From Chitinophagaceae bacterium (GTDB lineage: Bacteria; Bacteroidota; Bacteroidia; Chitinophagales; Chitinophagaceae): a stretch of DNA of 64,000 nucleotides. Positions 49,132 to 64,000 of this stretch are shown here, piece after piece. Each line of letters starts with the position of its first letter. Positions within the stretch are counted from its first letter, which is position 1. Location of the stretch: contig JADJLJ010000005.1 of assembly GCA_016710165.1 (NCBI GenBank), positions 10,937-74,936 on the forward strand. Direction: 5' to 3'. The notes under the pieces are model-generated. The model searched no databases and was not told the origin of the DNA. It worked only from the letters and a program-made list of their open reading frames with translations. A program made the translations under genes and the position numbers.

Positions 49132-49165
49132 GCAGTAAAGTTTAACATCCTTTGCTGTTCTGTAA

Positions 49166-49248
49166 ATGATAAAGATCAATCCGGTCAATGATTTGATTCA
49201 TGGAATGGCCTGTACAGATCAGCAATGAAATTTATTGACCACTGTCAT
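49166..49248. promoter_or_regulatory. Three FNR/CRP-like boxes between divergent ftsH and nitroreductase
   Basis: ATGAT-AAAG-ATCAA (49166), ATGAT-TTGA-TTCAT (49188) and TTGAC-CACT-GTCAT (49235). Confidence 0.55.
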
Positions 49249-49336
49249 ATTACCGGGTATCTGCGATCATCCATACGACAGCATCCTGTTGTTAGCTTTG
49301 AATTGGCCGGATCGGTTTGATCAGCCTCCATCAGTT

Positions 49337-49855
49337 ATGAAAGATACATTGGATGCCATACGCGAAAGGAAGAGTGTCCGGAGTTATACCGGTGAACCGG
49401 TAAGCAGGGAATTCATTGATAAACTGCTTCATGCGGCCATGGCTGCACCTGCTGCCATTCATATGCTCCCGTGGAAATTCATTGTGGTCACCGATAAGGA
49501 AAGACTAAAGGCTTTGGCCGGCGGTCTGCCGTTTGCTCAAATGGTAAACCGGGCAGGAACCGGCATTGTGGTTTGTGCAGTGCCGGAGGAAGCTGCCATG
49601 AACAGCGAAGCATACGCGGTGCTGGATTGTGCCTGCGCCAGTGAGAACATATTATTGGCAGCGGAGGCGCTCGGTTTGGGGGCAGTGTGGACAGCTATAT
49701 ATCCCAACCAGGAGCTGATGGATTTTGTAAGGGAGGAATTGGGGATCCCCAAAAATGTAATTCCGCTCAACCTGATCCCGGTCGGCTATCCAACCGGGGA
49801 GGAGAAAGCAACAGATAAATATGATCCCAGGAATGTCCATTGGGAAAAATGGTAA
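49337..49855 (+). CDS. Nitroreductase family protein
   Basis: IRERKSVRSYT, AAMAAPAA, PWKFIVV, DCACASENILLAAEALGLG. Confidence 0.92.
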   Translation: MKDTLDAIRERKSVRSYTGEPVSREFIDKLLHAAMAAPAAIHMLPWKFIVVTDKERLKALAGGLPFAQMVNRAGTGIVVCAVPEEAAMNSEAYAVLDCACASENILLAAEALGLGAVWTAIYPNQELMDFVREELGIPKNVIPLNLIPVGYPTGEEKATDKYDPRNVHWEKW

Positions 49856-49890
49856 ATAAATATATTCGGATAATACTAAAATGAAGAACC

Positions 49891-50295
49891 ATGTATATCG
49901 AAATAAATGATAACACCGTGATCCGGGATATCCAGCAGAAAATTGCCGATTATTATCCGTACCTGCAGGTAAAATTTTACAGTAAACCGCATAAAAAATA
50001 TGAAGCATCCGATCCGGGGGACCAGGTCTCTCCGGCTAAAAAGATCAGTGAGGTCAGGCAAACACATGTATCGGCCCTGCTGGAAATAACACCGGTATCA
50101 CGGATCCGGGATATTGAAAGTGAATTCCAGCAACGGTTCGGACTTTCCGTACAGATCCTGCGGAAAGAAAAGGGGATATGGGTCCAGACAACCGGAATGG
50201 ATGATTTTACGCTGAAGGAACTGAATGTGCTGAGCAGGAATTCTTCTGATGAATATATTCTTTCTGAACCCGATTCGGAATACCCGGAACAATAA
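49891..50295 (+). CDS. Hypothetical protein
   Basis: Clean ORF with an AT-rich upstream region; FQQRFGLSVQILRK...W pattern; no family recognised with certainty. Confidence 0.65.
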   Translation: MYIEINDNTVIRDIQQKIADYYPYLQVKFYSKPHKKYEASDPGDQVSPAKKISEVRQTHVSALLEITPVSRIRDIESEFQQRFGLSVQILRKEKGIWVQTTGMDDFTLKELNVLSRNSSDEYILSEPDSEYPEQ

Positions 50296-50335
50296 AGGTT
50301 ATTACTAATGGATCAATTTCAAAAAAAGCAGCCAT

Positions 50336-50728
50336 ATGCCCAATACGATCGCAGTATATTATACAGATGAACTTTCGGAATGGAAAGATTCGGTAACGCA
50401 CTGTTACCATGAGATAGATGAACTGACCCGAAAACTGGCAGATGTGATCCGCCGGAATTCCATTACCGGTATTGCGGAAAAGGTGGAGGTCCACCAGGAT
50501 ATGCTGAACCAGGCAGCCGATAATTTTTACCGGCTGGAAACGGGTATACAGCAGCAGGAAGAAGCACTGAAAATGGACAGTACCCTGCTTGACAATGAAC
50601 ATATTAACCATGAAACAGCGAACAGGCAAAATGAATTACGCCAGCGGATGCAGGCAGCAGAAAAGCAATTTATTGATGTGAAGTTTGATTGCTATGGATT
50701 CCTGGCAGGCACTTTGCAGAAAAAATGA
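50336..50728 (+). CDS. Hypothetical helical/coiled-coil protein
   Basis: Co-oriented ORF; amphipathic helical composition. Confidence 0.65.
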   Translation: MPNTIAVYYTDELSEWKDSVTHCYHEIDELTRKLADVIRRNSITGIAEKVEVHQDMLNQAADNFYRLETGIQQQEEALKMDSTLLDNEHINHETANRQNELRQRMQAAEKQFIDVKFDCYGFLAGTLQKK

Positions 50729-50794
50729 ACGGCAGCGGGTTCTGCGATCTGAATATCCCCGACGGGGGTTCTGGTTCCTGTATCATTCGTTTAG

Positions 50795-50808
50795 CTGATG
50801 GATATCAT
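50795..50808. promoter_or_regulatory. FNR/CRP-like box
   Basis: CTGAT-GGAT-ATCAT upstream of the HPF-like gene. Confidence 0.5.
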
Positions 50809-50876
50809 GGTTAATGGCTCCCGGTCCGTTTACTTTTAATGCAGGATTTTTTTTCAGACCATATAAAAAATATTTT

Positions 50877-51209
50877 ATGACCATCGAATTTCACACACCG
50901 CATGGAAAAGTACCTGAAAAACTGGTAAGTACCATCCGCAACGAAGTGCTCGAACTTCTGCATATCAATAAAAAGATATCCCGGGCAGAAGTGATGATGA
51001 GGGAGGAAATGAACAACCTGCAGGGAGAGAATGATGTCTGCGAGATCCGGCTCAGTATCTACGGCGATAATCTGTTTGTACATGGCCAGGCTGTTAGCTT
51101 TGAGAAAGCAGCAAGGATCGCTTTGAAAGAACTGAAACGACTGGTACGCCAGCAGGTAAAGAAGCAAAAGGAAGTTCCTGATCAAAAACTCAGTACGGTA
51201 AAGGTTTGA
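50877..51209 (+). CDS. HPF/RaiA-like (ribosome hibernation fold) protein
   Basis: KISRAEV...VCEIRLSIYGDNLFVHGQAVSFEKAA...LKRLV pattern. Confidence 0.6.
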   Translation: MTIEFHTPHGKVPEKLVSTIRNEVLELLHINKKISRAEVMMREEMNNLQGENDVCEIRLSIYGDNLFVHGQAVSFEKAARIALKELKRLVRQQVKKQKEVPDQKLSTVKV

Positions 51210-51266
51210 TGAGAGCGGATAAACGGGAATAGAAATTGTGCAGGGATCATTCCGGCGAGGATGATC

Positions 51267-51899
51267 TCAGCCTGTTTTTTTCAGTTCTTTCAGTTTATCC
51301 AGGTAATGCATCACTTCTTCATCACTTACCTGTTCAAAGTCTTCATAAAAAGCACCTACCCCGTAAAAATCTTCGGGTATTAAAACGGCCACCACTTCAT
51401 CCACTTCTTTTTCCAGTTTTTGAACCGCAGTTTCCGAGGCCACCGGGACACCGATCACGATCTTAGCCGGATTACTTTTTCGCAACACATTCACCGTACC
51501 CAGCAGTGTATTGCCGGTGGCAATGCCGTCGTCGATCACAATGACCGTCTTCCCTTCGAGTTTTTCCGGTTCTTTATCACCCATGAAACGGGCATGCATC
51601 TCCTTCAGCCTGCTGCGGATGCGTTGTAATTCCTGTTCGATATATTCTTCGGTAACACCCTCATGCGGCACTACAAAATGATCGGTAAGGCTTGCTGCGC
51701 CAATTGCATATTCTTTATTCATCGGGTGGCCGATCTTTTTGGTCAGTATTACTTCTACCGGCAAGCCCAGTTCCCGGGCAACGGCATAAGCAACCGGCAT
51801 ACCTCCCCTGGGAACTGCCAATACAATTCCGGGATCGTTCTTATACTTTTTCAGTTTGGCTGCCAGTAATAAACCTGCTTCCAGTCTGTCGTGAAACAT
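51267..51899 (-). CDS. Phosphoribosyltransferase
   Basis: MFHDRLEAG, VPRGG, VIVIDDGIATG (PRPP motif) and VGAFYEDFEQVSDEEV. Confidence 0.9.
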   Translation of the reverse strand: MFHDRLEAGLLLAAKLKKYKNDPGIVLAVPRGGMPVAYAVARELGLPVEVILTKKIGHPMNKEYAIGAASLTDHFVVPHEGVTEEYIEQELQRIRSRLKEMHARFMGDKEPEKLEGKTVIVIDDGIATGNTLLGTVNVLRKSNPAKIVIGVPVASETAVQKLEKEVDEVVAVLIPEDFYGVGAFYEDFEQVSDEEVMHYLDKLKELKKTG

Positions 51900-51920
51900 A
51901 AAATTTACTTTTTCTCATTC

Positions 51921-52562
51921 TTACCCGGCCAGGTGTTTTTCAAACCAGTTGCCAGCGAGTTCAGAAACAATTTCCATTTTCCCGGGTTCCTCAAACAAAT
52001 GTGTTGCTCCTTCTACCAACTCCAGTTTTTTTTCACATTGCAGTTTTGCATACGCTTTCTTATTCATTTCCACTACTTCGTGATCCAGGCTGCCCACGAT
52101 CAACAGGGTAGGAGCCTGTACACTGGGTAAAACATCTATTGCCAGGTCAGGCCTGCCTCCCCTGGAAACCACGGCAGCTATCTGCGGCAGGTATGCAGCA
52201 GCCCTCAGGGCAGAGGCAGCGCCCGTGCTGGCGCCAAAATAGCCGATGCGGCATTCTTTTACAGCAGGAAGTCCTTCCAGCCATTCAGTCGCACCGGCCA
52301 GTCTTTTGGAAAGTAAATTGATATCAAACCGGTTGGAATAATCTTCGTCTTCTTCCTCTGTCAGCAGGTCAAACAATAATGTTCCGATATTTTTCCCTTG
52401 CAGGTAACTTGCCACCTGCCGGTTGCGGCTGCTGAACCGGCTGCTGCCGCTTCCGTGTGAAAAAATAACAATGGCATTTGCCTTCAGCGGGATGATCAAT
52501 TCCCCCTGTACCGTTACATTGCCAAGCGGAATGTCTGTTTCCCTGTTAAGACGAAAATCCAT
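51921..52562 (-). CDS. Dienelactone hydrolase-like alpha/beta hydrolase
   Basis: FSHGSGSSRFS, GYFGASTGAA, VSRGGRPDLA and GATHLFEE. Confidence 0.88.
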   Translation of the reverse strand: MDFRLNRETDIPLGNVTVQGELIIPLKANAIVIFSHGSGSSRFSSRNRQVASYLQGKNIGTLLFDLLTEEEDEDYSNRFDINLLSKRLAGATEWLEGLPAVKECRIGYFGASTGAASALRAAAYLPQIAAVVSRGGRPDLAIDVLPSVQAPTLLIVGSLDHEVVEMNKKAYAKLQCEKKLELVEGATHLFEEPGKMEIVSELAGNWFEKHLAG

Positions 52563-52572
52563 TTTTAATTTT

Positions 52573-53097
52573 TTATCCGGGTATTACGATGGGCGCCCGG
52601 GCATTGATGTTTATCTCGTGTTCGGCCAGTTGAGTCAGCCGGTCGTCGATCTGTTTTTCATTCACTTCCGCTTCATGAAATACGGCTGCCTGTTGTTCGG
52701 TACCTACTACTTTGGCAAATGCAGCTGCCGTGCCATAGGTACTTATTTTAAAATGGTTAATGGCCTGTATGCTCGCCAGCAGGCAGGCATCTTTTATTTC
52801 AACGTCTGAGCAACCGGAAAGTTTTTCTTCCGTGTCTTCAATAAAGGCTCTCATTACCCGGTTTGTAACGCTGAGCGAAGTGATATGCTCTTCATCAAGA
52901 AAGACCTCCAGTTTTTGTATATGCTCTTCTACGTACAAAAGATACCGCTGCAGCACCGTTTTAAGTTTTAGCGAGCCCGCTTTATTTATCCATTCCGGTA
53001 ATTTGTTCTTTAACTGCACTTCTGCACTGGTGAACTTACGGGCATCATCATCCAGCAGGTTGCGCAGTGTGGCGATGGGTTGATAGTTTGCTTCCAT
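52573..53097 (-). CDS. DUF892/YciF ferritin-like protein
   Basis: SAEVQL...EEHIQKL...IQAINHFKISTYGT...EKQIDDRL. Confidence 0.82.
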   Translation of the reverse strand: MEANYQPIATLRNLLDDDARKFTSAEVQLKNKLPEWINKAGSLKLKTVLQRYLLYVEEHIQKLEVFLDEEHITSLSVTNRVMRAFIEDTEEKLSGCSDVEIKDACLLASIQAINHFKISTYGTAAAFAKVVGTEQQAAVFHEAEVNEKQIDDRLTQLAEHEININARAPIVIPG

Positions 53098-53147
53098 GAT
53101 ATTCAGTTTTATTGCTACGAATCTACGTTTCCTGCTGCCCGGAATGA

Positions 53148-53220
53148 ATGATATTGGTCACCAAAAATTTTGATTGACCTCATAATGCTGCCCTGGATGG
53201 CGTTAACTGATAATAATCAT
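53148..53220. promoter_or_regulatory. Three FNR/CRP-like boxes in the divergent DUF892/esterase intergenic region
   Basis: ATGAT-ATTG-GTCAC (53148), TTGAT-TGAC-CTCAT (53170) and CTGAT-AATA-ATCAT (53207). Confidence 0.5.
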
Positions 53221-53322
53221 TAAATGCATTGATGGGCGGCATTTTAAACAGGGGCCCGATTCCGTTGCTTTGGGAAAGGAACCCGTCCGGGATACCGGGC
53301 ATAACCGTTAAAACCAAACATC

Positions 53323-54660
53323 ATGCGACGCTACTTCACCAGGGATGTTTTATTGGACGAACGGGAAACAATAAACTCCATCAAACAATGGTCATATCCA
53401 TTACAAAATAAATCCGACCTGCAGCCGCTGCTCGACCGGGTAGGCGATGCCAGGATCGTAATGCTTGGGGAGGCAAGCCACGGTACACATGAGTATTACA
53501 CCTGGCGGACACATATTTCAAAGCGATTGATCGAGGAAAAGGGTTTTCAGTTCATTGCCGTGGAGGGTGACTGGCCGGATTGTTACCGCCTCAACCGTTT
53601 TATAAAAGGCTATGACGGGGAGAGCAGGAATGCATTTCACGTATTGCATTCATTTAACCGCTGGCCTACCTGGATGTGGGCAAACTGGGAAGTAATGGCG
53701 CTGGCGGGCTGGATGCACCGGCACAACAAAGGATTGTCCGTAAATAAAAGGGCCGGCTTTTATGGCCTGGATGTTTACAGTCTCTGGGAAAGCATGCAAA
53801 GCATCATGCAGTACCTGAAAAAAACGGATCCCGCAGCATTGGAAATGGCAGAGGCTGCGTTCCGGTGTTTTGAACCTTACCAGGATGATGAAGGGCGCTC
53901 GTATGCAAGGGCATCGCAGTTTGTTCCGGAATTATGCGAAAATGAAGTGCTGCATTTGCTGAAAGAGATACAGCAAAAAATGCCCACCTACAATACGGAT
54001 CATGAAAATGTTTTCAGTGCAGAACAGAATGCATTGATCGCCGTGCATGCTGAGAAATATTACCGGGCTATGATCAAGGGAGGTCCGCACAGCTGGAATG
54101 TACGGGACAGGCATATGGCCGATACCCTGGAACGCTTACTGGATTTTCACGGGGAAGGATCCAAAGTGATCGTGTGGGCTCATAATACCCATGTAGGTGA
54201 TGCAAGGGCAACGGATATGGTGGATGAAGGCATGTTCAACATTGGTGAACTGGCCAGGATGCAGCATCACGATAAAGGAGTGGTATTGGTGGGCTTTGGT
54301 TCTTACAAAGGAACGGTAACGGCGGGCAGAAGCTGGGGTGCCAAAATGAAAACGGTGGAAGTGCCGGAGGCCAGGAAGGGAAGCTGGGAATATTTACTGC
54401 ACCGGGCCGGAACGGAAAATAAGTTATTGCTGATGGATGACCTTACCGGCAGTGATATGCTGATGGAACATCACATCGGCCATCGGGCGATTGGCGTGGT
54501 ATATAACCCCGAATATGAGCAGTACGGGAATTATGTGCCTACTATCCTGCCTTTGCGGTATGATGCTTTTATTTACGTAGATGAAACCAGGGCATTGCAC
54601 CCGCTGCATATAGAACCCGACGGCCAGCAGATGCCTGAGACGTATCCATTTGCTGTATAA
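53323..54660 (+). CDS. Erythromycin esterase-family protein
   Basis: LGEASHGTHEYY, AVEGDWPD, WPTWMWAN, WNVRDRHM, WAHNTHVGDARAT and HRAIGVVY. Confidence 0.92.
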   Translation: MRRYFTRDVLLDERETINSIKQWSYPLQNKSDLQPLLDRVGDARIVMLGEASHGTHEYYTWRTHISKRLIEEKGFQFIAVEGDWPDCYRLNRFIKGYDGESRNAFHVLHSFNRWPTWMWANWEVMALAGWMHRHNKGLSVNKRAGFYGLDVYSLWESMQSIMQYLKKTDPAALEMAEAAFRCFEPYQDDEGRSYARASQFVPELCENEVLHLLKEIQQKMPTYNTDHENVFSAEQNALIAVHAEKYYRAMIKGGPHSWNVRDRHMADTLERLLDFHGEGSKVIVWAHNTHVGDARATDMVDEGMFNIGELARMQHHDKGVVLVGFGSYKGTVTAGRSWGAKMKTVEVPEARKGSWEYLLHRAGTENKLLLMDDLTGSDMLMEHHIGHRAIGVVYNPEYEQYGNYVPTILPLRYDAFIYVDETRALHPLHIEPDGQQMPETYPFAV

Positions 54661-54683
54661 CCATTACCTTAAACTAAAATACC

Positions 54684-55172
54684 ATGAACAATCCATTGGA
54701 ACATACCGGGGCAACAAGGGCCGTTGATTATATACAGTTAAAGGTCAGCAGTACGGCCTTCGGCGACGGGGAAATGATCCCCTCCAGATATACCTGTGAT
54801 GGGAGTAACATCAATCCCCCGCTGGATATTGAACATATTCCGGAAGAAGCCAGCTGCCTGGTATTGATCGTTGATGATCCCGATGCCCCGGGGGGTACCT
54901 GGGTGCACTGGATCGTTTGGAATATCCCACTGACCCATCACATGAAAGAGAATAATGTACATGGTATGGAAGGCCTTAATGACTTTGGGCAGCATCATTA
55001 TGGCGGGCCTTGCCCTCCATCCGGCACTCACAGGTACTTCTTTAAAGTATATGCCCTCGATTCATTACTTGAGCTGCCTGCCGATACGGATAAACTGCAA
55101 TTGGAAAAAGCAATGAGCGAACATATCCTGGCTTTCGGTGAACTGACCGGCTTGTATAAAAGAATAAGATAA
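54684..55172 (+). CDS. YbhB/YbcL (PEBP/Raf kinase inhibitor-like) protein
   Basis: YTCDG.NINPPL, DDPDAPGGTWVHW and GPCPPSGTHRYFF. Confidence 0.93.
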   Translation: MNNPLEHTGATRAVDYIQLKVSSTAFGDGEMIPSRYTCDGSNINPPLDIEHIPEEASCLVLIVDDPDAPGGTWVHWIVWNIPLTHHMKENNVHGMEGLNDFGQHHYGGPCPPSGTHRYFFKVYALDSLLELPADTDKLQLEKAMSEHILAFGELTGLYKRIR

Positions 55173-55279
55173 AGACGGGTATATTTGTACGGATTAGTTG
55201 TTATCATTACCAACAGGGTTCCGGATGTTTTCGGTGGTATTGAATTCACCGGTTGGCTATCTTTCTTTTATTTCACCCA

Positions 55280-56053
55280 ATGATGAGCACATCCATTGAA
55301 TATTTTGTTCAGAAGGACTCCATTGTGAGAACGATATGGGGGAAATCCGATACCATCCTTTTTATCTTCGCCGGCTCTGCGGCAGAGTTCGCTCTGAACA
55401 AGGCCGTTGATTGGTTGTACTTCACCGGTAAACTTCCGGCTGATCCGCTGGGCAGGTTATTTTCCACCGTTTCGTATGCAAGACAGATCGTTTTTTCAGA
55501 ACTGGGTAAGGCGCATGCAGCGATTGATAGAATTAATGCCATTCATGACGGGGTGGAAAAAAGCCGTAATGCAAAAATACCAGACTGGGCTTACCGGGAT
55601 GTTTTGTTCATGCTCATTCATTATTCCATCGCTTCTTTTGAACTGCTGGAAAGAAAATTGAGTGATGCTGAGAAAGAGGAACTGTATGATGTGTTCTTCC
55701 GGCTTGGCTCCCGGATGAACTTAAAAGAACTCCCGGAAAATTATACCGCCTGGCTCAGCAGCCGGCAGAAGCACCTGGAGACTGACCTGGTAAAAAGTGA
55801 TTACACGGTTGACCTGTACAAGCAGTACAAAAAACACCTGGGGAGGTCAAGGTATAAATTGCTGCTGGAATCGCAAAAACTTGTTGTGCCTGCAGCGGCA
55901 AAGAAAATGCTGGGCCTTAATGAACATTACTGGCTTAAATCCATTCTGCCATTTTATAAATTCAGCAGGAAAATAAAACTGGATGGTTTAATAAAGTCTG
56001 TCATACTGCCTTCCGCATACAGGGAACAGATAAATGCACTTGACAATAATTGA
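55280..56053 (+). CDS. DUF2236/oxygenase MpaB-like protein
   Basis: DPLGRLFSTVSY, INAIHDGVE and AYRDVLFML. Confidence 0.75.
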   Translation: MMSTSIEYFVQKDSIVRTIWGKSDTILFIFAGSAAEFALNKAVDWLYFTGKLPADPLGRLFSTVSYARQIVFSELGKAHAAIDRINAIHDGVEKSRNAKIPDWAYRDVLFMLIHYSIASFELLERKLSDAEKEELYDVFFRLGSRMNLKELPENYTAWLSSRQKHLETDLVKSDYTVDLYKQYKKHLGRSRYKLLLESQKLVVPAAAKKMLGLNEHYWLKSILPFYKFSRKIKLDGLIKSVILPSAYREQINALDNN

Positions 56054-56058
56054 TGCCG

Positions 56059-56502
56059 TCAGCTTTTTTTATTCCGGATGAAGATCACTCCGTCCTGTAT
56101 CTCATCAGCAAGTTGCTGGATTGTCTTTGCGGTGAACAGATTTATCAATTGCGTTTTTATCACTTTGTATTGTGCATGCATGGGACATGGCCGGGTTTCG
56201 GAACATAACTTTAAACCCATCACGCATTTTTCCAGTATCTCCTCTTCGCCCATCGCTTCCAAAACCACACGAACAGGTAATTGTTTTGCCTTTTCCGGAA
56301 TAAAAAAACCGCCCTGCGGGCCCCGGGCAGAACTGACCACCTTATTTCCCCGGGTCAGTTGCTGTAATATTTTTGCCGTAAAAGAGCGGGGAGAATCGAT
56401 CGCCCGGGCAATTTCTTCAATACCCATCTTATTCTCTTCCGAACTTTTTTGGGCTAAAAAAAGGGTGGCCCTCAGTGCATATTCCGTTGCTTTTGAAAAC
56501 AT
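56059..56502 (-). CDS. Rrf2-family transcriptional regulator with an Fe-S Cys motif
   Basis: TEYALRA, AKILQQL, SARGPQGGF and CVMGLKLCSETRPCPMH. Confidence 0.92.
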   Translation of the reverse strand: MFSKATEYALRATLFLAQKSSEENKMGIEEIARAIDSPRSFTAKILQQLTRGNKVVSSARGPQGGFFIPEKAKQLPVRVVLEAMGEEEILEKCVMGLKLCSETRPCPMHAQYKVIKTQLINLFTAKTIQQLADEIQDGVIFIRNKKS

Positions 56503-56551
56503 AGCTTTTATTAAACCGGGAAACTACAATATTTTTTAATGAGCCGGTCAT

Positions 56552-56729
56552 TGATCCGCCAGCGGGTAGTGTTCTATTTTGAATGATTGTCATCCTGAGC
56601 CTGCCTGCCGGTAGGCAGGGTACGAAGGATCTCCTGATCAGGATCGTTTACTTAACCTGAGATGCTTCGTTCCTCAGCATGACAGGTCACAAAATATTCA
56701 AAACAGGACACTACCTGCCGGCGGGTTCA
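56552..56729. repeat. ~180-bp nested hairpin: outer ~30-bp inverted repeat, inner GTCATCCTGAG...CTCAGCATGAC hairpin, and a 20-bp palindrome inserted in the left inner arm (56600-56619)
   Basis: Outer arms CCGCCAGCGGGTAGTGTTCTATTTTGAAT and rc CCGCCGGCAGGTAGTGTCCTGTTTTGAAT. Inner arms GTCATCCTGAG[CCTGCCTGCCGGTAGGCAGG]GTACGAAGGATCT and rc GTCATGCTGAG-GAACGAAGCATCT. Confidence 0.85.
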
Positions 56730-57150
56730 GCGCCCATTCCGCATACGAATCCTTTGTTTCATAGATCTTCAGGTATTCTAAGCGGGTATTCCCGGGTAGT
56801 TTTGTGCTTAATTCATCCTTTATAAAGACCAGCATATTTTCTGCGGTAGGTTCAGCCGCAAACACAACCAGGTTTTCCATGGATGCAAAGCCGGGATTGG
56901 CAGCTACAAAGCCGGCAGACAACAATAGCTTGTGATCGAATTTTTCCAGAACCGTATTGCTTACGATCTTTTTGATCTCTTTGAAGTCCATCACAAAGCC
57001 GGGTGCAGGTATATAAGCATCCCGGTTTGTAACAGAGGAAACCGTTACGTGCAACTCATACGAATGGCCATGGATATTTTTACAGGAGCCCTGGTATCCG
57101 TGTATGGCATGTGCCATTTCAAAGTGAAATATTTTTGTAAGCTTCAGCAT
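56698..57150 (-). CDS. queD: 6-carboxy-5,6,7,8-tetrahydropterin synthase (QueD/PTPS)
   Basis: FHFEMAHAI...CKNIHGHSYEL, DFKEIK, FDHKLL, PTAENM and IYET. Confidence 0.9.
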   Translation of the reverse strand: MLKLTKIFHFEMAHAIHGYQGSCKNIHGHSYELHVTVSSVTNRDAYIPAPGFVMDFKEIKKIVSNTVLEKFDHKLLLSAGFVAANPGFASMENLVVFAAEPTAENMLVFIKDELSTKLPGNTRLEYLKIYETKDSYAEWALNPPAGSVLF

Positions 57151-58569
57151 CTATGTTTTTATTTGGGTTGACCAGTTTAATGAGTTGGTTTGTTCCCCGG
57201 CGCTTTCCTTCCTTTTCCGGATGGCTGTTTTGAAGAAACATACGAGCTGGTTCCTCAGCAGGGGAAAGATCAGCAGGTAGAAGCCTGCCGTCATCACTGT
57301 TCCGGCTATGAAGAAAAGGATGAAGTAAGGCCGCAGTTGCAGCATCATCGTGCTGAAAGGGACCCTGGCCGAACTCATCTGCCATTTGGCTTTTACTATG
57401 CCTGCAGTAATGAGGCTGATCCAGAAAATAAGCAGGGAGAGATTTGCAATGAGGTAACCACGGTTGAACCAGTTCCTCCGCTGCTTAACCGGCATGCATG
57501 TATCCTGCAGGATATCCGATGCCATGGCCAGCAAAAGGAAACTGTTGATGCCGATCGTTGCTCCCATGGTATGGGCCACCGTGATATGTGTGCCATGTGT
57601 ATACACATTTATGGCGGGTACCGACATGGCGATCGCCAAAGCCAGCGTCAGGAATATCCAGATATCTGCCGCCACGATGAACCGGTAGGCCGTGTTGTGA
57701 TAATGCTTTCTTGCAGCAGTTAACGTGGACCTCCATTGCCATATGATCCTTCCTAAAATAAAAAGTTCGGTCATACTTACGGCATAACTGATGTGTTTCA
57801 CCCATGGATAGGTTGGCAGGGTATAAATATGATGTCCCCAGTTGAACATCAGGTTGAACAGGCCCGTGAAATAGAGCAGGAAGGCAATGGGGGCCCGGCT
57901 GTAGTTTTTTTCACCGCTGATCTTTTCCATCAGGAATATGCTGCAGCCATAGATGAGCATGTTCCATGCGCCAACCATGGAACCATAGGATTTCCATTGT
58001 ACGGTCATATCATTTACTACGTTGTTCCGGAAGTAAGGGAATAACCATAAATAGGATTCAATAAAAGTGAACAGGAAAAAGACCAGGCCGGTGAGCCACA
58101 TCCATACGTAGACCGGTTGTTTTTTAAAGCCGTCAATTGATCCCAGGAAGTTAATGATGAAGAGTACCCAGCCGGTTGCAATGGGCATGGCCAGGGCCGG
58201 GTGAAATTCCCAGTATTCCCGGCCGCCGAACACACCGGCACAATACGATATCAAAATAGCAAGAACGGAGATCACAAAAATGAACAATTGGATCCTGGCG
58301 AGAAGGGGTGAATAAAGTTCCCTGCCCGTATATTCCCGTAAATAGGTGAGCACGGCTCCCATAGCACCCAGTATGATCCAGAAGACCATGGAAGATACAT
58401 GCAGGGGCCTGGTCATTTCAAAAGAGAGATGTGATTTTAAGAACCCCGGTACCAGGTATTGTAAAGCACCAGTGAGCCCGAATAACATACCGGCTGCAAG
58501 TAATAGCATACCGGCTACCAGGAAAAATTTTGTGACACCGGGTTTATTTCTGTTCAATGGTTCCATCAT
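57151..58569 (-). CDS. Atypical heme-copper oxidase superfamily subunit (NorB/cbb3 subunit I-like, ~12 TM)
   Basis: RPLHVS (helix II His), GREYWEF, WGHHIY, NVYTHGTHITVAHTM. Start overlaps the cytochrome c stop. Confidence 0.8.
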   Translation of the reverse strand: MMEPLNRNKPGVTKFFLVAGMLLLAAGMLFGLTGALQYLVPGFLKSHLSFEMTRPLHVSSMVFWIILGAMGAVLTYLREYTGRELYSPLLARIQLFIFVISVLAILISYCAGVFGGREYWEFHPALAMPIATGWVLFIINFLGSIDGFKKQPVYVWMWLTGLVFFLFTFIESYLWLFPYFRNNVVNDMTVQWKSYGSMVGAWNMLIYGCSIFLMEKISGEKNYSRAPIAFLLYFTGLFNLMFNWGHHIYTLPTYPWVKHISYAVSMTELFILGRIIWQWRSTLTAARKHYHNTAYRFIVAADIWIFLTLALAIAMSVPAINVYTHGTHITVAHTMGATIGINSFLLLAMASDILQDTCMPVKQRRNWFNRGYLIANLSLLIFWISLITAGIVKAKWQMSSARVPFSTMMLQLRPYFILFFIAGTVMTAGFYLLIFPLLRNQLVCFFKTAIRKRKESAGEQTNSLNWSTQIKT

Positions 58570-58960
58570 AACTGAGCGTAAAGGTTTTTGGGTCCGACCT
58601 GCCGGAGGCATCCAGTTGCCTGAAAAATCCCAGCAGGTTTTTTATCTCCGACTGGTCCAAATGAAAATCGGGCATGATGCTGGTCCCGTTCTTGAGGAAT
58701 GCTTCAATATATGCCGGCCCTCTTACCGAGTAAACATTCGTGAGGTCCGGGCCCAGGTATCCGCCCAGGCCATATACCTGGTGGCATGCATTGCAATTAT
58801 ATTTTTGCCATGACAGTTTCCCGGCAGCGGCTTCCAGGTCCTGTTTGATCCTTTTTACCGGCAGGTTGGAATACAGGTAAACGGAATAACACAGGAAGGA
58901 TGACAGTAAAAGAATCAGTACTGAGATCCGCTGCCGGTCGCTGGATAAATGATAACGCAT
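58544..58960 (-). CDS. Membrane-anchored monoheme cytochrome c (NorC-like)
   Basis: N-terminal TM helix; WQKYNCNACHQVYGLGGYLGPDLTNV; MPDF Met ligand. Confidence 0.9.
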   Translation of the reverse strand: MRYHLSSDRQRISVLILLLSSFLCYSVYLYSNLPVKRIKQDLEAAAGKLSWQKYNCNACHQVYGLGGYLGPDLTNVYSVRGPAYIEAFLKNGTSIMPDFHLDQSEIKNLLGFFRQLDASGRSDPKTFTLSYDGTIEQK

Positions 58961-58964
58961 AAAT

Positions 58965-58990
58965 AATTAAGGACAAATTTATCCTTAATT
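58965..58990. promoter_or_regulatory. 26-bp palindromic operator between the divergent cytochrome c and qNor-like genes
   Basis: AATTAAGGACAAA/TTTATCCTTAATT; 12 of 13 positions pair. Confidence 0.75.
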
Positions 58991-58992
58991 GG

Positions 58993-59000
58993 TATATTTG
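58993..59000 (+). promoter_or_regulatory. -7 promoter element (TATATTTG) of the qNor/Nod-like gene
   Basis: TAnnTTTG match 2 bp after the operator and 16 bp before the ATG. Confidence 0.7.
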
Positions 59001-59016
59001 CCAAAATTTCCCTTTC

Positions 59017-61299
59017 ATGGCAAAGTATAACATTATCAACTACCTGCTTAATCCAAGAAATTGGTGGCTGCCGCTACTGGTTATTTTTGTGATCAGCATT
59101 ACAGGGGTAACGATGATCGGGATTCATACATATACAGAAGCCCCGCCCATTCCATCTTATACTTCATCAAAAAATAAAGTCATCTTTTCTGACGAAGAAG
59201 TGCTGAAAGGACAAGCCGTATTTCAGCAATACGCACTTATGGAATACGGGAGTATGTTTGGGGATGGTGCCAACCGTGGGCCCGACTATACAGCGGAAGC
59301 CTTGCACTATGTTTCCCATTACATGAATGAATATTACCAATCCCTGGTGAAAGCCGATTCTTCAGGCGATCTGATGAGAAAAGGGGTGATGGAACAGGTG
59401 AAAGCAGAGATCAAATCGAACCAATATGACAAGGCTGTTAACAAGGTTGTACTTACCGATGCCCAGGTCTATGCAGCCTCTGAACTGGTTGGGTTGTATC
59501 ATCAGAAATTTACCAACCCTTCCTTCCCGGGAGCTTTTAAACCATCCGGGTATATCAGGGATACAGTTGAGATCAGGTCCCTGACGGCCTTTTTCTTCTG
59601 GGGCGCCTGGGTATGTGGTGTGAAAAGACCTGGGCAACAGTATAGCTATACGCATAACTGGCCTTATGATCCCGCGGCCGGAAATACTCCCAGTTCGGCC
59701 ATCATACTATGGAGTATCATAGGTTCGCTGGGGCTGATATTCGGATTGGGTATTGTATTGTATTACCATGGAAAATTGGAAAAACTCGATGATGAGGCTT
59801 TTACAAACAAAGCCCAGCCATTTATGTCAAGGGGCGATGTAAATGAGTTTCAACCCGATGCTGTTCAAAAGGCTACCTACAAATTCTTTTATGTGGCGGT
59901 TTTGTTATTCGCTGTCCAGGTTCTGTCAGGTATTTTAACGGTTCATGATTTTGTTGGATTGGTAAACTTCTTTGGATTCAATATTTCCGAATCTCTTCCT
60001 GTTACCGTAACCAGGAGCTGGCATGTGCAATTATCTATTTTATGGATATCTGCCTGCTGGATAGGCGCTTCGTTTTTTATGATGTCATTGGTTTCGCCAC
60101 AACAACCCAAAAAACAGGTTACGCTTATCAATACCGTTTTCTGGCTTACTTTTTTACTGTTGGCCGGGTCCTTTGCGGGCATATTCCTGGGCCCAATGGG
60201 AATCATCGGAAAGTACTGGTACTGGCTGGGTCACCAGGGATGGGAGTATATGGAACCTGGAAAACTATGGCAGGTAATACTTGCGGTTATATTTATCATA
60301 TGGGCATTAACACTATACCGGGGTATCAAACCGGTAATGAAACTGAAACAGCCATGGGCTTTGCCGAACTGGCTTGTGTATGCAACGTTCAGTATTATCC
60401 TGTTATTGATATCCGGTTTCATTGCAACTCCCAAGACGAATTTTGTGATCGCTGATTTCTGGCGATGGATGGTGGTGCATATGTGGGCTGAAGCTTTTTT
60501 CGAAGTATTCACTACGGTACTGATCGGTTACTTTATGGTGGTAATGGGCCTGGTAAGCAGGCAGGCAGTGATTCGGGTTATTTACCTGGCTACGTTATTA
60601 TTCCTGGGTTCGGGCCTGCTGGGCATCTCGCATAATTTTTACTGGAATGCAAAACCTGTTGGTACCATGGCTTTGGGAGCTGTGTTCTCCACGCTTCAGG
60701 TTATCCCATTGGTATTGCTGACATTGGAAGCGTGGCGATTCAGTAAATTCCCCAACGTGCTGGAAAATAATAACAAAGTAAACGGTGGCCAGCAAAAGCA
60801 GTTTGGTTTTTCAGGGGTATTCCTTTTTTTGGTGGCTGTTAATTTCTGGAATTTTTTCGGAGCCGGGGTGTTGGGTTTTATTATCAATCTTCCCATTGCT
60901 AATTATTATGAGCTTGAAACCTATTTACCAGACAAGCATGGTCATGCAGCACTGATGGGGGTGTACGGAAACCTTGCATTGACCACTATTTTATTTTGCT
61001 GCCAGTTATTATTTAAAGCAGACTGGTGGAAACCCGGCGTTATTAAAACTGTTTTCTGGTCGATCAACATAGGCCTGTTGCTGATGGTTTTCCTTGATCT
61101 GTTTCCTGCAGGAATTTACCAGTTTAAAACAGTAACGGAGCAGGGCCTATGGTATGCCCGTAGCAGTTCATTTATAGAAAGTAACGGATTTCAAACCCTG
61201 ACCTGGCTACGTATTGCAGGTGGTTCGCTATTCACATTGGGAGGAGTGATACCCCTGGTTTGGTTTATCACCCGGGGAAGAAAAGGGTTGAAAATATAA
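59017..61299 (+). CDS. qNor-family protein with nitric oxide dismutase (Nod)-like active-site substitutions
   Basis: YGSMFGDGANRGPDYTAEALH, HNWPYD, VVHMWAEAFFE, ISHNFYW, STLQVIP, HGHAALMGVYG and LRIAGG. Confidence 0.9.
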   Translation: MAKYNIINYLLNPRNWWLPLLVIFVISITGVTMIGIHTYTEAPPIPSYTSSKNKVIFSDEEVLKGQAVFQQYALMEYGSMFGDGANRGPDYTAEALHYVSHYMNEYYQSLVKADSSGDLMRKGVMEQVKAEIKSNQYDKAVNKVVLTDAQVYAASELVGLYHQKFTNPSFPGAFKPSGYIRDTVEIRSLTAFFFWGAWVCGVKRPGQQYSYTHNWPYDPAAGNTPSSAIILWSIIGSLGLIFGLGIVLYYHGKLEKLDDEAFTNKAQPFMSRGDVNEFQPDAVQKATYKFFYVAVLLFAVQVLSGILTVHDFVGLVNFFGFNISESLPVTVTRSWHVQLSILWISACWIGASFFMMSLVSPQQPKKQVTLINTVFWLTFLLLAGSFAGIFLGPMGIIGKYWYWLGHQGWEYMEPGKLWQVILAVIFIIWALTLYRGIKPVMKLKQPWALPNWLVYATFSIILLLISGFIATPKTNFVIADFWRWMVVHMWAEAFFEVFTTVLIGYFMVVMGLVSRQAVIRVIYLATLLFLGSGLLGISHNFYWNAKPVGTMALGAVFSTLQVIPLVLLTLEAWRFSKFPNVLENNNKVNGGQQKQFGFSGVFLFLVAVNFWNFFGAGVLGFIINLPIANYYELETYLPDKHGHAALMGVYGNLALTTILFCCQLLFKADWWKPGVIKTVFWSINIGLLLMVFLDLFPAGIYQFKTVTEQGLWYARSSSFIESNGFQTLTWLRIAGGSLFTLGGVIPLVWFITRGRKGLKI

Positions 61300-61330
61300 A
61301 CAGGGTCCGGTATATTGAAACAATCATCTG

Positions 61331-61822
61331 ATGAAAAGAATACAGCGCCTCTGGCTGAATATTAAAATAAATATTATCTGGTGGCCAACACATTATTTCC
61401 TGATGGCTGGTGCAAAAAAAGCCAAAGGGGAATTGTCATTTAATAAAAAAAGCACCTGTGATAAACCATTGGTATATTCCTGTTCGGGGTGTTCAAGTGC
61501 TGCACAAATGGCCAATTACCTTGCTGTACGGCTTGACAGAAACGGATTGGCGGAAATGTCGTGCATAGTTGGTGTAGGAGGCAATGTAAAGAAACTGGTA
61601 CATACTGCTTTATCCGGAAGGGGAATAATTACCATTGATGGTTGCCCATTGGCATGCTCTAAAGCATGCCTGGGTAATCATTTATTGCAACCTGCCATGC
61701 ATTTTGAATTGACCAGTATGGGGGTTAAAAAAATACAACATGAAGATTTTGACCTGTTTCAGGCTGATGCGGTATTCAATGTGGTAAAGGCAAAAGTGGC
61801 CGCGTTTACAAAACAATATTAA
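61331..61822 (+). CDS. DGC-domain putative zinc-binding protein (start uncertain)
   Basis: VYSCSGCSSAAQMAN, MSCIVGVGG and IDGCPLACSKACL. Confidence 0.85.
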   Translation: MKRIQRLWLNIKINIIWWPTHYFLMAGAKKAKGELSFNKKSTCDKPLVYSCSGCSSAAQMANYLAVRLDRNGLAEMSCIVGVGGNVKKLVHTALSGRGIITIDGCPLACSKACLGNHLLQPAMHFELTSMGVKKIQHEDFDLFQADAVFNVVKAKVAAFTKQY

Positions 61823-61834
61823 AAACAGGATTAA

Positions 61835-62317
61835 ATGAAGAAGCTGAAGAATAATAAAACGGCTGCAGAATCTAGTATCATTAAAACTGAAGTGGTTTGT
61901 CCCAATGATACAAACCCGATGGGCATGTTGAAAGGAGGCAGGTTGGTGGAATGGATGGATGTAACGGCAGCGGTATGTGCACAAACGCATGCTGGAAATA
62001 TCTGTGTTACTGCATCCATCAATCATGTTGATTTCAACACTTCAGCAACGGTGGGTGACATCATCACAATCCATGCAAAGATCACCCGGGCATTTACCAC
62101 TTCGATGGAGATCTTTGTACAGGCTTTTGCAAGGAAAGTGGCCAGCCTGAAAAATTCATTGATCAGTGAGGCTTATTTCACTTTCGTAGCTATTGATGAG
62201 AATGGCATAGCAACATCCGTTTTGAAATTAAAGCCCGTAGCTGCTTCTGAAAAAAGGCAATATGCAGCTGCACTTCACCGGAAGATGCGCAACAGGCTTA
62301 TTCGTTCGGTCATGTAA
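61835..62317 (+). CDS. Acyl-CoA thioesterase (hotdog fold)
   Basis: PNDTNPMGMLKGGRLVEWMD, VTASIN and AYFTFVAIDE. Confidence 0.9.
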   Translation: MKKLKNNKTAAESSIIKTEVVCPNDTNPMGMLKGGRLVEWMDVTAAVCAQTHAGNICVTASINHVDFNTSATVGDIITIHAKITRAFTTSMEIFVQAFARKVASLKNSLISEAYFTFVAIDENGIATSVLKLKPVAASEKRQYAAALHRKMRNRLIRSVM

Positions 62318-62414
62318 TCTGCATCCTGGTAAACCGGAAAATGCATGGACTATCTCATGTACATCATGGCATAATGTTGATTTATTGGAATTCCAGTGGA
62401 ATAAAAAATTTCGG

Positions 62415-63686
62415 ATGAATGACAGAAAAATTGAATTACTAGCCCCGGCAGGGTCATACGAAAGCCTGCAGGCAGCAATAGTCGCAGGCGCGGATTCCAT
62501 TTATTTCGGGGTGGAGCAGCTAAATATGCGTGCACGTTCCTCCGGTTCATTCTCCGTTACTGATATAAAAACAATAAGCAATATTTGCAAAACGAGTGGT
62601 GTGAAGTCGTACATCACGCTTAATACGGTCATGTATGAGCATGATATGCAACTGCTGAAAGTCATATTGCGGCAAGTGAAGAAATACGGAATCAATGCTG
62701 TGATTGCATCGGATTTTTCTGTGATCGAATATTGCAAAAAGCTGGATATACCGTTGCATATTTCAACCCAGGCGAATGTCAGCAATGTTAAATCAGTACA
62801 GTTCTTTTCCGGTTTTTCAGATGCCATCGTAATGGCAAGGGAACTTACATTAAAACAGGTAAAGGATATTGCACGTGAAATACAACGGAAGAAAATAGTA
62901 GGACCTTCCGGTGATTTGATCCGGATTGAAATATTTGTGCATGGTGCTTTATGTATGGCCATTTCAGGAAAATGTTATTTAAGTCTGCACGTACAAAATG
63001 CTTCTGCAAATCGGGGGGCCTGTATGCAGAATTGCAGAAGGGCTTATCTGGTAAGGGATGCTGAGTCGGGAGACGAACTCAGCATCGACAATGAATACAT
63101 CATGTCACCAAAAGATCTGTGTACGATTGAGATACTCGACCGGGTAATCGATAGCGGGGCAGGCATTTTAAAAATTGAAGGGAGAACCAAAGGGGCCGAT
63201 TATGTCCGGGTGGTTACACAGTGTTATCGTGAAGCAATACAGGCAGTGAAGGAAGGAACATTTACAGCAGAAAAAGTGACAAGATGGAAAAATGAATTGC
63301 GAAAGGTTTATAACCGTGGCTTCTGGGAAGGTTATTATCTTGGAAGAAAGTTCGGTGAGTGGACACTTCATCCCGGTTCTGCGGCTACGGAAAAGAAAAT
63401 CTATATCGGTAAAGGGGTGCGGTATTATCCAGAAATTCATATCGGGGAATTTATTCTTGAATCAGGCAATCTGAAAGCTGGAGATACAATGTTGCGAACA
63501 GGGCCGGAATGTGGAATGCTGAAAGATAGGATAAAGACATTCCGGGTAAATGGAATAGATGGTAATGAAGCGGTTAAGGGTGATAGAATTACTTTTCTGG
63601 TGGATTCAAAAGTCACCGTCAGTGACAAGCTTTATAAAATTATTGAAACAGTCAGCCATGCAGAAGATAGTTCAATACAGAAATAA
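62415..63686 (+). CDS. U32-family protein (Fe-S hydroxylase-type, TrhP/RlhA/UbiU family)
   Basis: ELLAPAG, GADSIYFG, HISTQAN, HGALCMAISGKC, NRGACMQNCRR and LKIEGR. Confidence 0.93.
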   Translation: MNDRKIELLAPAGSYESLQAAIVAGADSIYFGVEQLNMRARSSGSFSVTDIKTISNICKTSGVKSYITLNTVMYEHDMQLLKVILRQVKKYGINAVIASDFSVIEYCKKLDIPLHISTQANVSNVKSVQFFSGFSDAIVMARELTLKQVKDIAREIQRKKIVGPSGDLIRIEIFVHGALCMAISGKCYLSLHVQNASANRGACMQNCRRAYLVRDAESGDELSIDNEYIMSPKDLCTIEILDRVIDSGAGILKIEGRTKGADYVRVVTQCYREAIQAVKEGTFTAEKVTRWKNELRKVYNRGFWEGYYLGRKFGEWTLHPGSAATEKKIYIGKGVRYYPEIHIGEFILESGNLKAGDTMLRTGPECGMLKDRIKTFRVNGIDGNEAVKGDRITFLVDSKVTVSDKLYKIIETVSHAEDSSIQK

Positions 63687-63879
63687 GTGTATCGGTTGTG
63701 GTGTTTGTGCAGAACAACAACCGGAACTCTGGCGTATGTCAAGAAAAGACGGCAAAGCTATTTTATTAAGGGCGGTGAAGAAGAAGGAAATATTTGTATT
63801 GCCAATGAACAATTCAGCTCACCAAAAAACACTCGAAGTGATCCAGGTCTGCCCGGTAAAAAGTATAAAAATATCATGA
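63658..63879 (+). CDS. Ferredoxin (single-cluster)
   Basis: CIGCGVC...VCPVKSI; overlaps the U32 gene stop. Confidence 0.85.
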   Translation: MQKIVQYRNKCIGCGVCAEQQPELWRMSRKDGKAILLRAVKKKEIFVLPMNNSAHQKTLEVIQVCPVKSIKIS

Positions 63880-64000
63880 ACAAGACCATCATTCAATTTC
63901 TTTGTGAGCAAAATTGTGCAAGTATTTGCTGTATAGATGAAGAAGGCAGGCCTTACTGTTTTAGTTGTTTCTATGTATTCAACAGTAAACAGGCGCTGAT
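63876..64000 (+). CDS. Pyridoxamine-5'-phosphate oxidase-like (YhbP-type) protein, partial
   Basis: Translated by hand: MNKTIIQFLCEQNCASICCIDEEGRPYCFSCFYVFNSKQAL; ATGA overlap with the ferredoxin stop. Confidence 0.6.
   Translation, partial: MNKTIIQFLCEQNCASICCIDEEGRPYCFSCFYVFNSKQAL

Follow-up and report, generated by a model that had tools for sequence, protein, structure and literature searches.

Nitric oxide dismutase (NOD) is the only enzyme proposed to form O2 from nitrogen oxides independently of light, and it is biochemically uncharacterised after 15 years. The NOD signature was defined by Ettwig et al. in 2012, with Flavobacterium among the organisms listed, and O2 production was inferred physiologically for the Methylomirabilis-type clade (PMC3413370). 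In this definition (Ettwig 2012; Murali 2022-2024), the metal-ligand Asn is N564 of the Nod of Candidatus Methylomirabilis oxyfera and corresponds to H560 of the quinol-dependent nitric oxide reductase (qNOR) of Geobacillus stearothermophilus (Gs). The nod gene was found in Sediminibacterium by Ruff et al. in 2023 (PMC10264387), and a 2024 review counted 16 phyla with NOD and divided the family into four subclades; Bacteroidota contributed over half of the sequences (PMC11549561). No NOD has been purified or assayed, the reaction 2 NO -> N2 + O2 has never been demonstrated with a purified NOD, and the physiological results on O2 production by nod carriers conflict (PMC13386854). A link of NsrR-type regulators to Bacteroidota nod and the idea of detoxification were also raised earlier (10.1101/2023.11.21.568154, PMC13386854). 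Herein, a nod gene and its gene cluster are compared with these systems. The gene lies in a 64-kb stretch of contig JADJLJ010000005.1 from a Chitinophagaceae bacterium (GCA_016710165.1), called the window below; positions of open reading frames (ORFs) are counted from window position 1.

The gene is a nod, a member of the NOD family in the Bacteroidota/Planctomycetia-type subclade, and its host is a Ferruginibacter-like member of the Chitinophagaceae. In the Nod protein, Pfam detected the NorB cytochrome-c-like domain in the N-terminal part (residues 49-217) and the COX1 catalytic domain at residues 286-737. The CxxCH motif is absent from the 760-residue protein, and zero families were matched in the NCBIfam search. 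The best solved-structure match by HMMER was the Gs qNOR 3AYF, with an E value of 1.6e-152 over residues 15-751. This full-length match settles the fold of the protein.

An earlier note, made from the DNA letters alone, had described the gene as a qNOR paralogue with the NOD signature. Every residue that it named was recovered at the equivalence it gave, both in the HMMER alignment with 3AYF and in the direct translation. H488/E492 correspond to Gs H508/E512, H539 to Gs H559, and H641/H643 to Gs H651/H653. Both haem axial His ligands and two of the three metal His ligands are kept; H336, H488, H539, H641, and H643 are all present and are at least 97% invariant in the 378-sequence alignment described below. 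Glu492/Glu496 (Gs Glu512/Glu516) and the Ca-site Glu410 are also kept. The third metal ligand and the proton-relay Glu are replaced with Asn540 and Gln561 (Table 1). Contigs assembled from four independent public runs have the Asn, Gln, and Gly736 codons without change, and an assembly error as the source of the signature is thereby ruled out.

The quinol cluster of His, Glu, Asp, and Arg has been defined in the qNOR of Alcaligenes xylosoxidans (AxqNOR), in which Glu559 gates a water channel (PMC10256718). The equivalent of Ax Glu559 is Gs E581 in the HMMER alignment, the position read as Gln in Nod. The quinol pocket of Nod is half retained: H310, the equivalent of Gs H328, and R732 are kept, and both are invariant in the subclade, with E332 replaced by G314 and D746 replaced by G736. 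The change of Gs E332 to G314 goes beyond the residues named in the earlier note. With these residues replaced, quinol binding is likely lost in Nod.

Family placement was determined with 378 full-length qNOR and NOD sequences, comprising the window protein and 377 relatives collected by three homology searches and one exhaustive search of representatives. Three patterns were found in the alignment. The canonical qNORs (n=39) read H-E-F...H-E-E...H-H...E...H-G...H-H...D. In the classical NOD group (n=130), H328 is missing along with a short deletion at that place, and the pattern is H-N...Q...G. The window's group (n=209) keeps H310 together with G314, H-N, Q, and G736. Asn540, Gln561, and Gly736 co-occur without exception in 339/339 NOD-clade sequences. 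At the positions of N540 and Q561, all 39 canonical qNORs read His and Glu, and at the last position 97% of them read Asp. Eleven columns split both NOD groups from qNOR, and the window protein has the NOD residue at nine of them (D311, S352, W452, M489, N540, A545, Q561, N609, and G736).

A phylogeny had been suggested as a check in the earlier note; a neighbour-joining tree was calculated for 60 non-redundant sequences, based on 732 alignment columns and 200 bootstrap replicates. All signature-bearing proteins formed one clade apart from the canonical qNORs with 100% support; the classical group was supported at 100% and the window's group at 98.5%. The full signature and the place in the NOD clade thus bear out the reading of the gene as a Nod and not as a canonical qNOR. 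The window protein is 78-91% identical to its Chitinophagaceae relatives, 51-61% to the non-redundant members of its own group, 41-47% to the classical group, and 25-38% to the qNOR representatives. Candidatus Scalindua proteins, the 'Planctomycetia-type Nod' described by Elbon et al., fall within the window's group. For the classical clade, the anchors were Magnetovibrio and proteins with the JGI label 'nitric oxide dismutase'. This anchoring is indirect, as the set contains no Methylomirabilis-named sequence; none was present in the top 120 hits from each of the two extra homology searches.

Compared with the Nod of Ca. Methylomirabilis oxyfera (DAMO_2434/2437) and of strain HdN1, the window's Nod has the same qNOR-derived architecture, the same His to Asn and Glu to Gln changes, and the same loss of the quinol-site Asp. 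It shares D311, W452, M489, A545, and N609 with the classical NOD clade and is monophyletic with it; however, the identity is only 41-47%, and the classical clade has lost His328 with a 2-residue deletion there, whereas the window's clade keeps His310. The gene surroundings differ as well, with classical genes near pmo or LuxR-type regulators (10.1101/2023.11.21.568154) and the window's nod with an Rrf2 regulator and NO-stress genes. The Bacteroidota and 'Planctomycetia-type' NODs of Sediminibacterium, Algoriphagus, Cecembia, and Scalindua japonica have a signature string identical to that of the window's Nod, H G. H E E H N Q H G H H G, and an Rrf2 neighbour has been reported for Cecembia. 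From these NODs there is no family-level difference; the window copy is 20 aa shorter C-terminally and has six private substitutions. The qNORs of G. stearothermophilus (3AYF/3AYG), Alcaligenes xylosoxidans, and Neisseria meningitidis resemble Nod in fold, in length, in the N-terminal haem-less cytochrome-c-like domain, in the haem b/b3 ligands, in the Ca-site Glu, in the Glu512/Glu516 equivalents, and in the quinol-site His and Arg. They differ from it at His560 (Asn in Nod), Glu581 (Gln), and Glu332 and Asp746 (both Gly).

A 99%-identical protein (P0001) is encoded in the Ferruginibacter sp. metagenome-assembled genome (MAG) GCA_019052635.1, and the contig of this MAG is collinear with window positions 49017-64000 at 99.83% identity. 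Ferruginibacter belongs to the Chitinophagaceae, so the host family given in the earlier note is the right one. The C-terminus of the window's Nod is about 20 aa shorter than in most relatives (760 versus 780-782 aa; stop codon at 61297-61299). The part missing is the hydrophilic C-terminal tail of the relatives, and the 99%-identical public protein is equally short. Among species-representative genomes, 570 relatives were found. The best 80 of these come from Chitinophagaceae, Sphingobacteriales, and Cytophagales, together with one Ignavibacteria locus and one Kapaibacteriota locus, and include the cultured carriers Hydrotalea flava, Flavihumibacter species, Flavisolibacter ginsengisoli, and Daejeonella sp. 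The window's nod is a further member of a known and well-surveyed family and is nothing categorically new. The novelty is low because the family, its occurrence in Chitinophagaceae, and the Rrf2 neighbour have all been published. The earlier note had itself supposed that the clade was not new and that its activity was unproven; the literature agrees on both counts (PMC11549561, PMC10264387 for the former; PMC13386854 for the latter).

The neighbourhoods of nod were analysed in the best 80 of the 570 species-representative loci, with neighbours counted within 6 kb of nod. The Rrf2 regulator was the most constant partner of nod (58/80 loci), followed by the DGC-domain protein (33/80), the QueD-like protein (24/80), the haem-copper oxidase homolog (HCO) and the cytochrome c (22/80 each), the 4HBT thioesterase (19/80), and the U32 protein and the ferredoxin (13/80 each). 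Where the cytochrome c-HCO pair is missing, the Rrf2 gene lies directly upstream of nod in divergent orientation. Clustering of the ORFs also revealed a RIC/YtfE-type protein (DUF2249, ScdA_N, and hemerythrin domains) in 20/80 loci and a DUF1858 + DUF2249 protein in 12/80. These are typical nitrosative-stress genes, and the Ferruginibacter MAG has a RIC gene as well, 8 kb beyond nod on its right side. The families nirK, nirS, and nosZ were absent among about 56 Pfam-annotated ORFs across the 64 kb, where the other large ORFs are housekeeping genes, and nir/nos families were absent among the recurrent neighbours of the 80 loci. A denitrification island is ruled out by these counts. A second qNOR was not visible within the 64-kb window.

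Table 1 Features of the nod locus and other features of the 64-kb window.
Feature	Position	Strand	Description
nod	59017..61299	+	NOD-family (qNOR-derived) membrane protein, 760 aa
His310-Asp311...Gly314	59944..59958	+	quinol-site His kept; Tyr to Asp (NOD-specific); quinol-site Glu332 to Gly
His539-Asn540 codons	60631..60636	+	third non-haem-metal His ligand (Gs H560) to Asn
Gln561 codon	60697..60699	+	Gs Glu581 (catalytic/proton-relay) to Gln
Six clustered non-synonymous single-nucleotide polymorphisms (SNPs), private to the window	60914..60982	+	H633L, G634E, T638P, V639D, N640K, A656T
Gly736 codon	61222..61224	+	replaces quinol-site Gs Asp746; nearby Arg732 (Gs R742) kept
22-bp palindrome TTAAGGACAAATTTATCCTTAA	58967..58988		putative Rrf2 operator in the gap between the cytochrome c gene and nod; 11+11, one mismatch
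TATATTTG	58991..58998	+	-7-like element about 18 bp before the nod ATG; conserved in the intergenic alignment
Rrf2-family regulator	56059..56502	-	conserved C-x6-C-x5-C motif; NsrR-like by context
QueD/PTPS-family protein	56698..57150	-	recurrent cluster member
HCO	57151..58569	-	atypical haem-copper oxidase homolog like the cytochrome c-dependent NO reductase (cNOR); 472 aa per public gene call; longest ORF to 58611
Cytochrome c	58544..58960	-	membrane-anchored, mono-haem, NorC-like, CxxCH; divergent from nod
DGC-domain Cys-rich protein	61331..61822	+	directly downstream of nod; CSGC + DGCxLACxxxC conserved
4HBT thioesterase, U32-family protein, small ferredoxin	61835..63879	+	optional downstream module
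ftsH	47198-49188	-	essential protease; split into three frames (84 + 92 + 475 aa)

The gap between the cytochrome c gene and nod is 56 bp long and contains the palindrome. This is a single site in 64 kb, with 0 expected from shuffled sequences. Further operator sites were found neither in the window nor in the Ferruginibacter MAG locus (L001), even when 5 mismatches were allowed, and the RIC gene of L001 has no operator in front. In the alignment of related loci, the palindrome is visibly kept at an unchanged distance from nod, and a strict 18-mer detected it in 44 loci. The -7-like element follows the palindrome and fits TAnnTTTG, the Bacteroidota -7 promoter consensus. The Rrf2 protein itself matched Pfam Rrf2 with an E value of 2.2e-20 and scored over the cut-off of TIGR00738, and its three-Cys Fe-S motif is conserved in 56 homologs.

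On this basis, the palindrome would cover the upstream half of the nod promoter. The neighbouring Fe-S Rrf2 (NsrR-like) repressor probably binds it and releases it on NO, and nod would be switched on by NO. The arrangement was compared with the NsrR/Rrf2 regulons of Proteobacteria and Firmicutes (hmp, ytfE/RIC, norB). Shared features are an Fe-S Rrf2 regulator in divergent orientation, a palindromic AT-rich operator over the promoter, and RIC/YtfE-type genes nearby; however, the regulator of the window is no NsrR equivalog by NCBIfam score, and the operator has a sequence particular to these Bacteroidota loci. Metatranscriptome contigs from a bioreactor and from sludge cover nod (59033-61160), the HCO (57883-58642), and the DGC gene (61632-61836), and several of them are 100% identical.

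The reaction proposed for Nod in the published hypothesis is 2 NO -> N2 + O2. Quinol-driven NO reduction of the qNOR kind seems unlikely for the window's Nod. If Nod does not take quinol electrons, it would act on NO without an external reductant, and an electron-neutral reaction would be the economical reading. Its carriers are mostly aerobic heterotrophs, in which the role would be NO removal under nitrosative stress, with any O2 as a by-product. The context of NO-stress genes suggests NO removal as the selected function. Taken as a whole, the explanation by a Nod-family gene with donor-free NO chemistry, an NO-induced and NO-removing role, and an optional HCO module is given a probability of about 0.6.

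Several points weigh against this explanation. The Rrf2 protein scored 34.8 bits against the NsrR equivalog NF008240, whose cut-off is 182, and it is therefore named NsrR-like by context only; we infer both its effector and its binding to the palindrome. The dismutation step is a hypothesis, with no purified NOD and with opposing physiology in the literature (PMC13386854). A modified quinol or menaquinol site is possible, as judged from the invariant His310 and Arg732 of the subclade. The transcription of nod, the HCO, and the DGC gene has thin support, since the contigs are shallow and may stem from carried-over DNA. The nod allele of the window, with its six radical private substitutions beside the haem ligands, may be inactive or mis-sequenced.

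The rival explanations differ in what they take from the same residues. An ordinary quinol-dependent NO reductase would agree with the Gs qNOR as the best solved-structure match and with the public annotation of relatives as 'nitric-oxide reductase large subunit'; against this stand the four replacements H560N, E581Q, E332G, and D746G, the position inside the NOD clade at 100% bootstrap, and the identity of just 25-38% to qNOR representatives. A canonical qNOR is ruled out by these replacements and by the tree, and we give this reading almost no weight. The main rival is a Nod that is still an NO reductase making N2O, detoxifying NO with a modified donor site (e.g. menaquinol at His310/Arg732) or with another redox partner, in which Asn and Gln tune the chemistry. 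This rival is viable because His310, Asp311, and Arg732 are invariant, the first and the last of these being quinol-site residues kept throughout the subclade. It also fits the NsrR-like/RIC context, which is usual for NO-detoxifying reductases, the frequent view of qNOR itself as a detoxification enzyme (PMC11214002), and the opposing O2-production results for nod carriers (PMC13386854). However, both quinol-site carboxylates are lost, and all 339 NOD sequences have substitutions at one metal ligand and at the proton-relay Glu. The Methylomirabilis-type clade, whose physiology pointed to O2 production, shares these substitutions (PMC3413370). A reductase of this kind is considered unlikely, though it deserves to be kept in view.

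A further rival concerns the neighbours of nod and takes Nod and the divergent cytochrome c and cNOR-like oxidase as an obligate two-enzyme pathway, in which the oxidase uses, for example, the O2 or the N2O of Nod. The divergent layout is conserved, with 56-136 bp between the genes and a common operator in 22/80 nod loci; the metatranscriptome contigs cover both genes; and a cNOR-related HCO family has been proposed as a membrane N2O reductase of Bacteroidota (PMC11214002). The counts in both directions argue otherwise. The oxidase is missing from 58/80 nod loci. In a reciprocal scan of metagenomes with the HCO as query, 240 relatives were found and the best 80 loci were examined: the cytochrome c was present in 75/80, Rrf2 in 51/80, and the QueD-like protein in 47/80, whereas nod adjoined the HCO in just 8 of the 51 HCO loci having at least 3 kb of upstream DNA. 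Where nod is absent, the oxidase has its own operator copy, with the palindrome ahead of the cytochrome c-HCO pair in 33/62 nod-less loci. The reciprocal counts (22/80 and 8/51) indicate that the pairing is recurrent yet optional both ways. An obligate pairing of Nod with a NorBC-like complex is ruled out by them, and a two-enzyme pathway of this kind is improbable. The earlier note had singled out the pairing with an atypical NorBC-like complex; this pairing recurs facultatively, and the invariant partner of nod is the Rrf2 regulator with its operator. In the preferred explanation, the cytochrome c and the cNOR-like oxidase would be a second, independent, and optional module of the same regulon and not an obligate partner of Nod.

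The remaining rival applies to the window's copy alone and takes it as a defective allele or a sequence artefact, since the private cluster would disrupt the helix with both haem ligands. The first five private changes lie directly N-terminal of the haem b3/haem b ligands H641/H643, and in AxqNOR both haem ligands lie on one helix, TM XII (PMC10256718). Between the window and the Ferruginibacter MAG, 26 SNPs were found in 14,984 bp. All six SNPs of the nod cluster are non-synonymous within 69 nt, compared with 5/17 of the other coding SNPs (12 synonymous). The consensus allele at the six sites is present in four independent public runs, in the MAG, and in two Logan contigs, and the share of the sampled words found in any one public run is at most 81%. 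In the 378-sequence alignment, invariance at H633 and T638 is 97% or higher, and L633/E634 occur in none of the other 377 sequences. The ftsH gene points in the same direction: its break consists of three one-base homopolymer indels (48655, 48663, and 48959) that are absent from four public assemblies, and the Ferruginibacter MAG encodes an intact 644-aa FtsH. These private indels indicate that the source assembly contains consensus errors, and the nod cluster may be a further sequence error or a real inactivating variant. On the other side, the ftsH errors are homopolymer indels, whereas the nod changes are substitutions outside homopolymers, and the causes may differ. Ordinary synonymous private SNPs also occur, which speaks for the window as a genuine separate strain, and Q, I, T, or M is tolerated at the His633 position in some canonical qNORs. 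A defective or artefactual copy is a serious prospect, with odds slightly short of even. As causes of the cluster, gene conversion from a paralog is unlikely, L633/E634 being absent from the other sequences, and mutagenesis of the diversity-generating retroelement type is unlikely because the changes are not A-specific.

The HCO is a cNOR-like protein with an altered active site. Its best solved matches are NorB of Roseobacter (E 5e-19) and of Pseudomonas (E 2e-15). Like cNOR NorBC, it combines a small membrane-anchored cytochrome c with a 12-TM (transmembrane) HCO subunit. Unlike NorB, it has Tyr at the position of the first FeB-ligand His and a His/Met pair at the low-spin haem; the HH pair is kept. 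In P. aeruginosa NorB numbering, the changes are H207 to Tyr, E211 to Val, E215 to Asn, and H349 to Met. A canonical cNOR NorB has three His with Glu211, Glu215/Glu280, and a bis-His haem, and the HCO does not have this set. The motifs QWKSYGSMVG, WGHHIY, and AHTMG and the unusual residues are strictly conserved in 21 homologs. Murali et al. mentioned in 2024 an 'N2O red' family that is related to cNOR and connected with Flexibacter canadensis, in a text that gives no residue definition (PMC11214002). The HCO may belong to this family; the agreement is confined to the relation to cNOR and the distribution in Bacteroidota.

In a more speculative picture for Bacteroidota, a single NO-sensing Rrf2 switch would control both enzymes, either as alternatives or in cooperation, and together they would convert toxic NO to N2 without conventional Nor or NosZ. 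Nod would dismutate NO. The Tyr-His-His HCO would use up the O2, or it would act on N2O and thereby be the long-sought membrane-bound N2O reductase of Flexibacter-type bacteria, which is insensitive to acetylene. This proposal is a long shot. If it were true, a distinct site for a donor or for protons would be recognisable in this NOD subclade by the invariant His310/Asp311/Arg732 triad, and the proposal could be tested directly in cultured carriers such as Hydrotalea flava, Flavihumibacter, Flavisolibacter ginsengisoli, and Daejeonella. As a separate observation on the module, one Chitinophagaceae MAG contains two nod copies on separate contigs, JBGAPQ010000004.1 (L015) and JBGAPQ010000006.1 (L032), one with the cytochrome c-HCO module and one without it, which are nod paralogs within one genome.

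The subclade is of practical use, as several cultured, fast-growing isolates carry nod. The sharply defined operator and regulator could be used for inducing nod, and the half-retained quinol pocket offers a concrete handle for mutagenesis. The nod regulon also holds a strictly conserved and undescribed cNOR-like enzyme. If NOD in these aerobes proved to be an electron-free NO detoxifier, the nod counts that serve as evidence of 'dark oxygen' in metagenomes would be read differently. The window leaves the function of NOD no more testable than the published Bacteroidota examples do.

Several minor observations were made on the rest of the window and cluster. A 501-aa ORF at window positions 873-2378 (minus strand) has an N-terminal GIY-YIG nuclease domain (residues 9-81) and also contains a complete PurK enzyme of the ATP-grasp type. 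The two may be truly fused, or the ORF caller may have joined neighbouring genes. The DGC protein and the QueD/PTPS-like protein recur at nod loci without an obvious role in NO chemistry. The U32 protein and the small ferredoxin (62415-63879, plus strand) are curious neighbours for a putative O2-generating enzyme. U32 proteins include the O2-independent hydroxylases UbiU/UbiV, TrhP, and RlhA. Two families without Pfam matches also recur near Bacteroidota nod, a Cys-rich family of about 145 aa (26/80 loci) and a family of about 600 aa (23/80). Both are similar in size, and in the lack of a Pfam match, to a pair of unannotated genes (150 and 592 aa) located after the ferredoxin in the Ferruginibacter MAG (L001, 14860-17235), the first of which starts within the window at 63876-64000.

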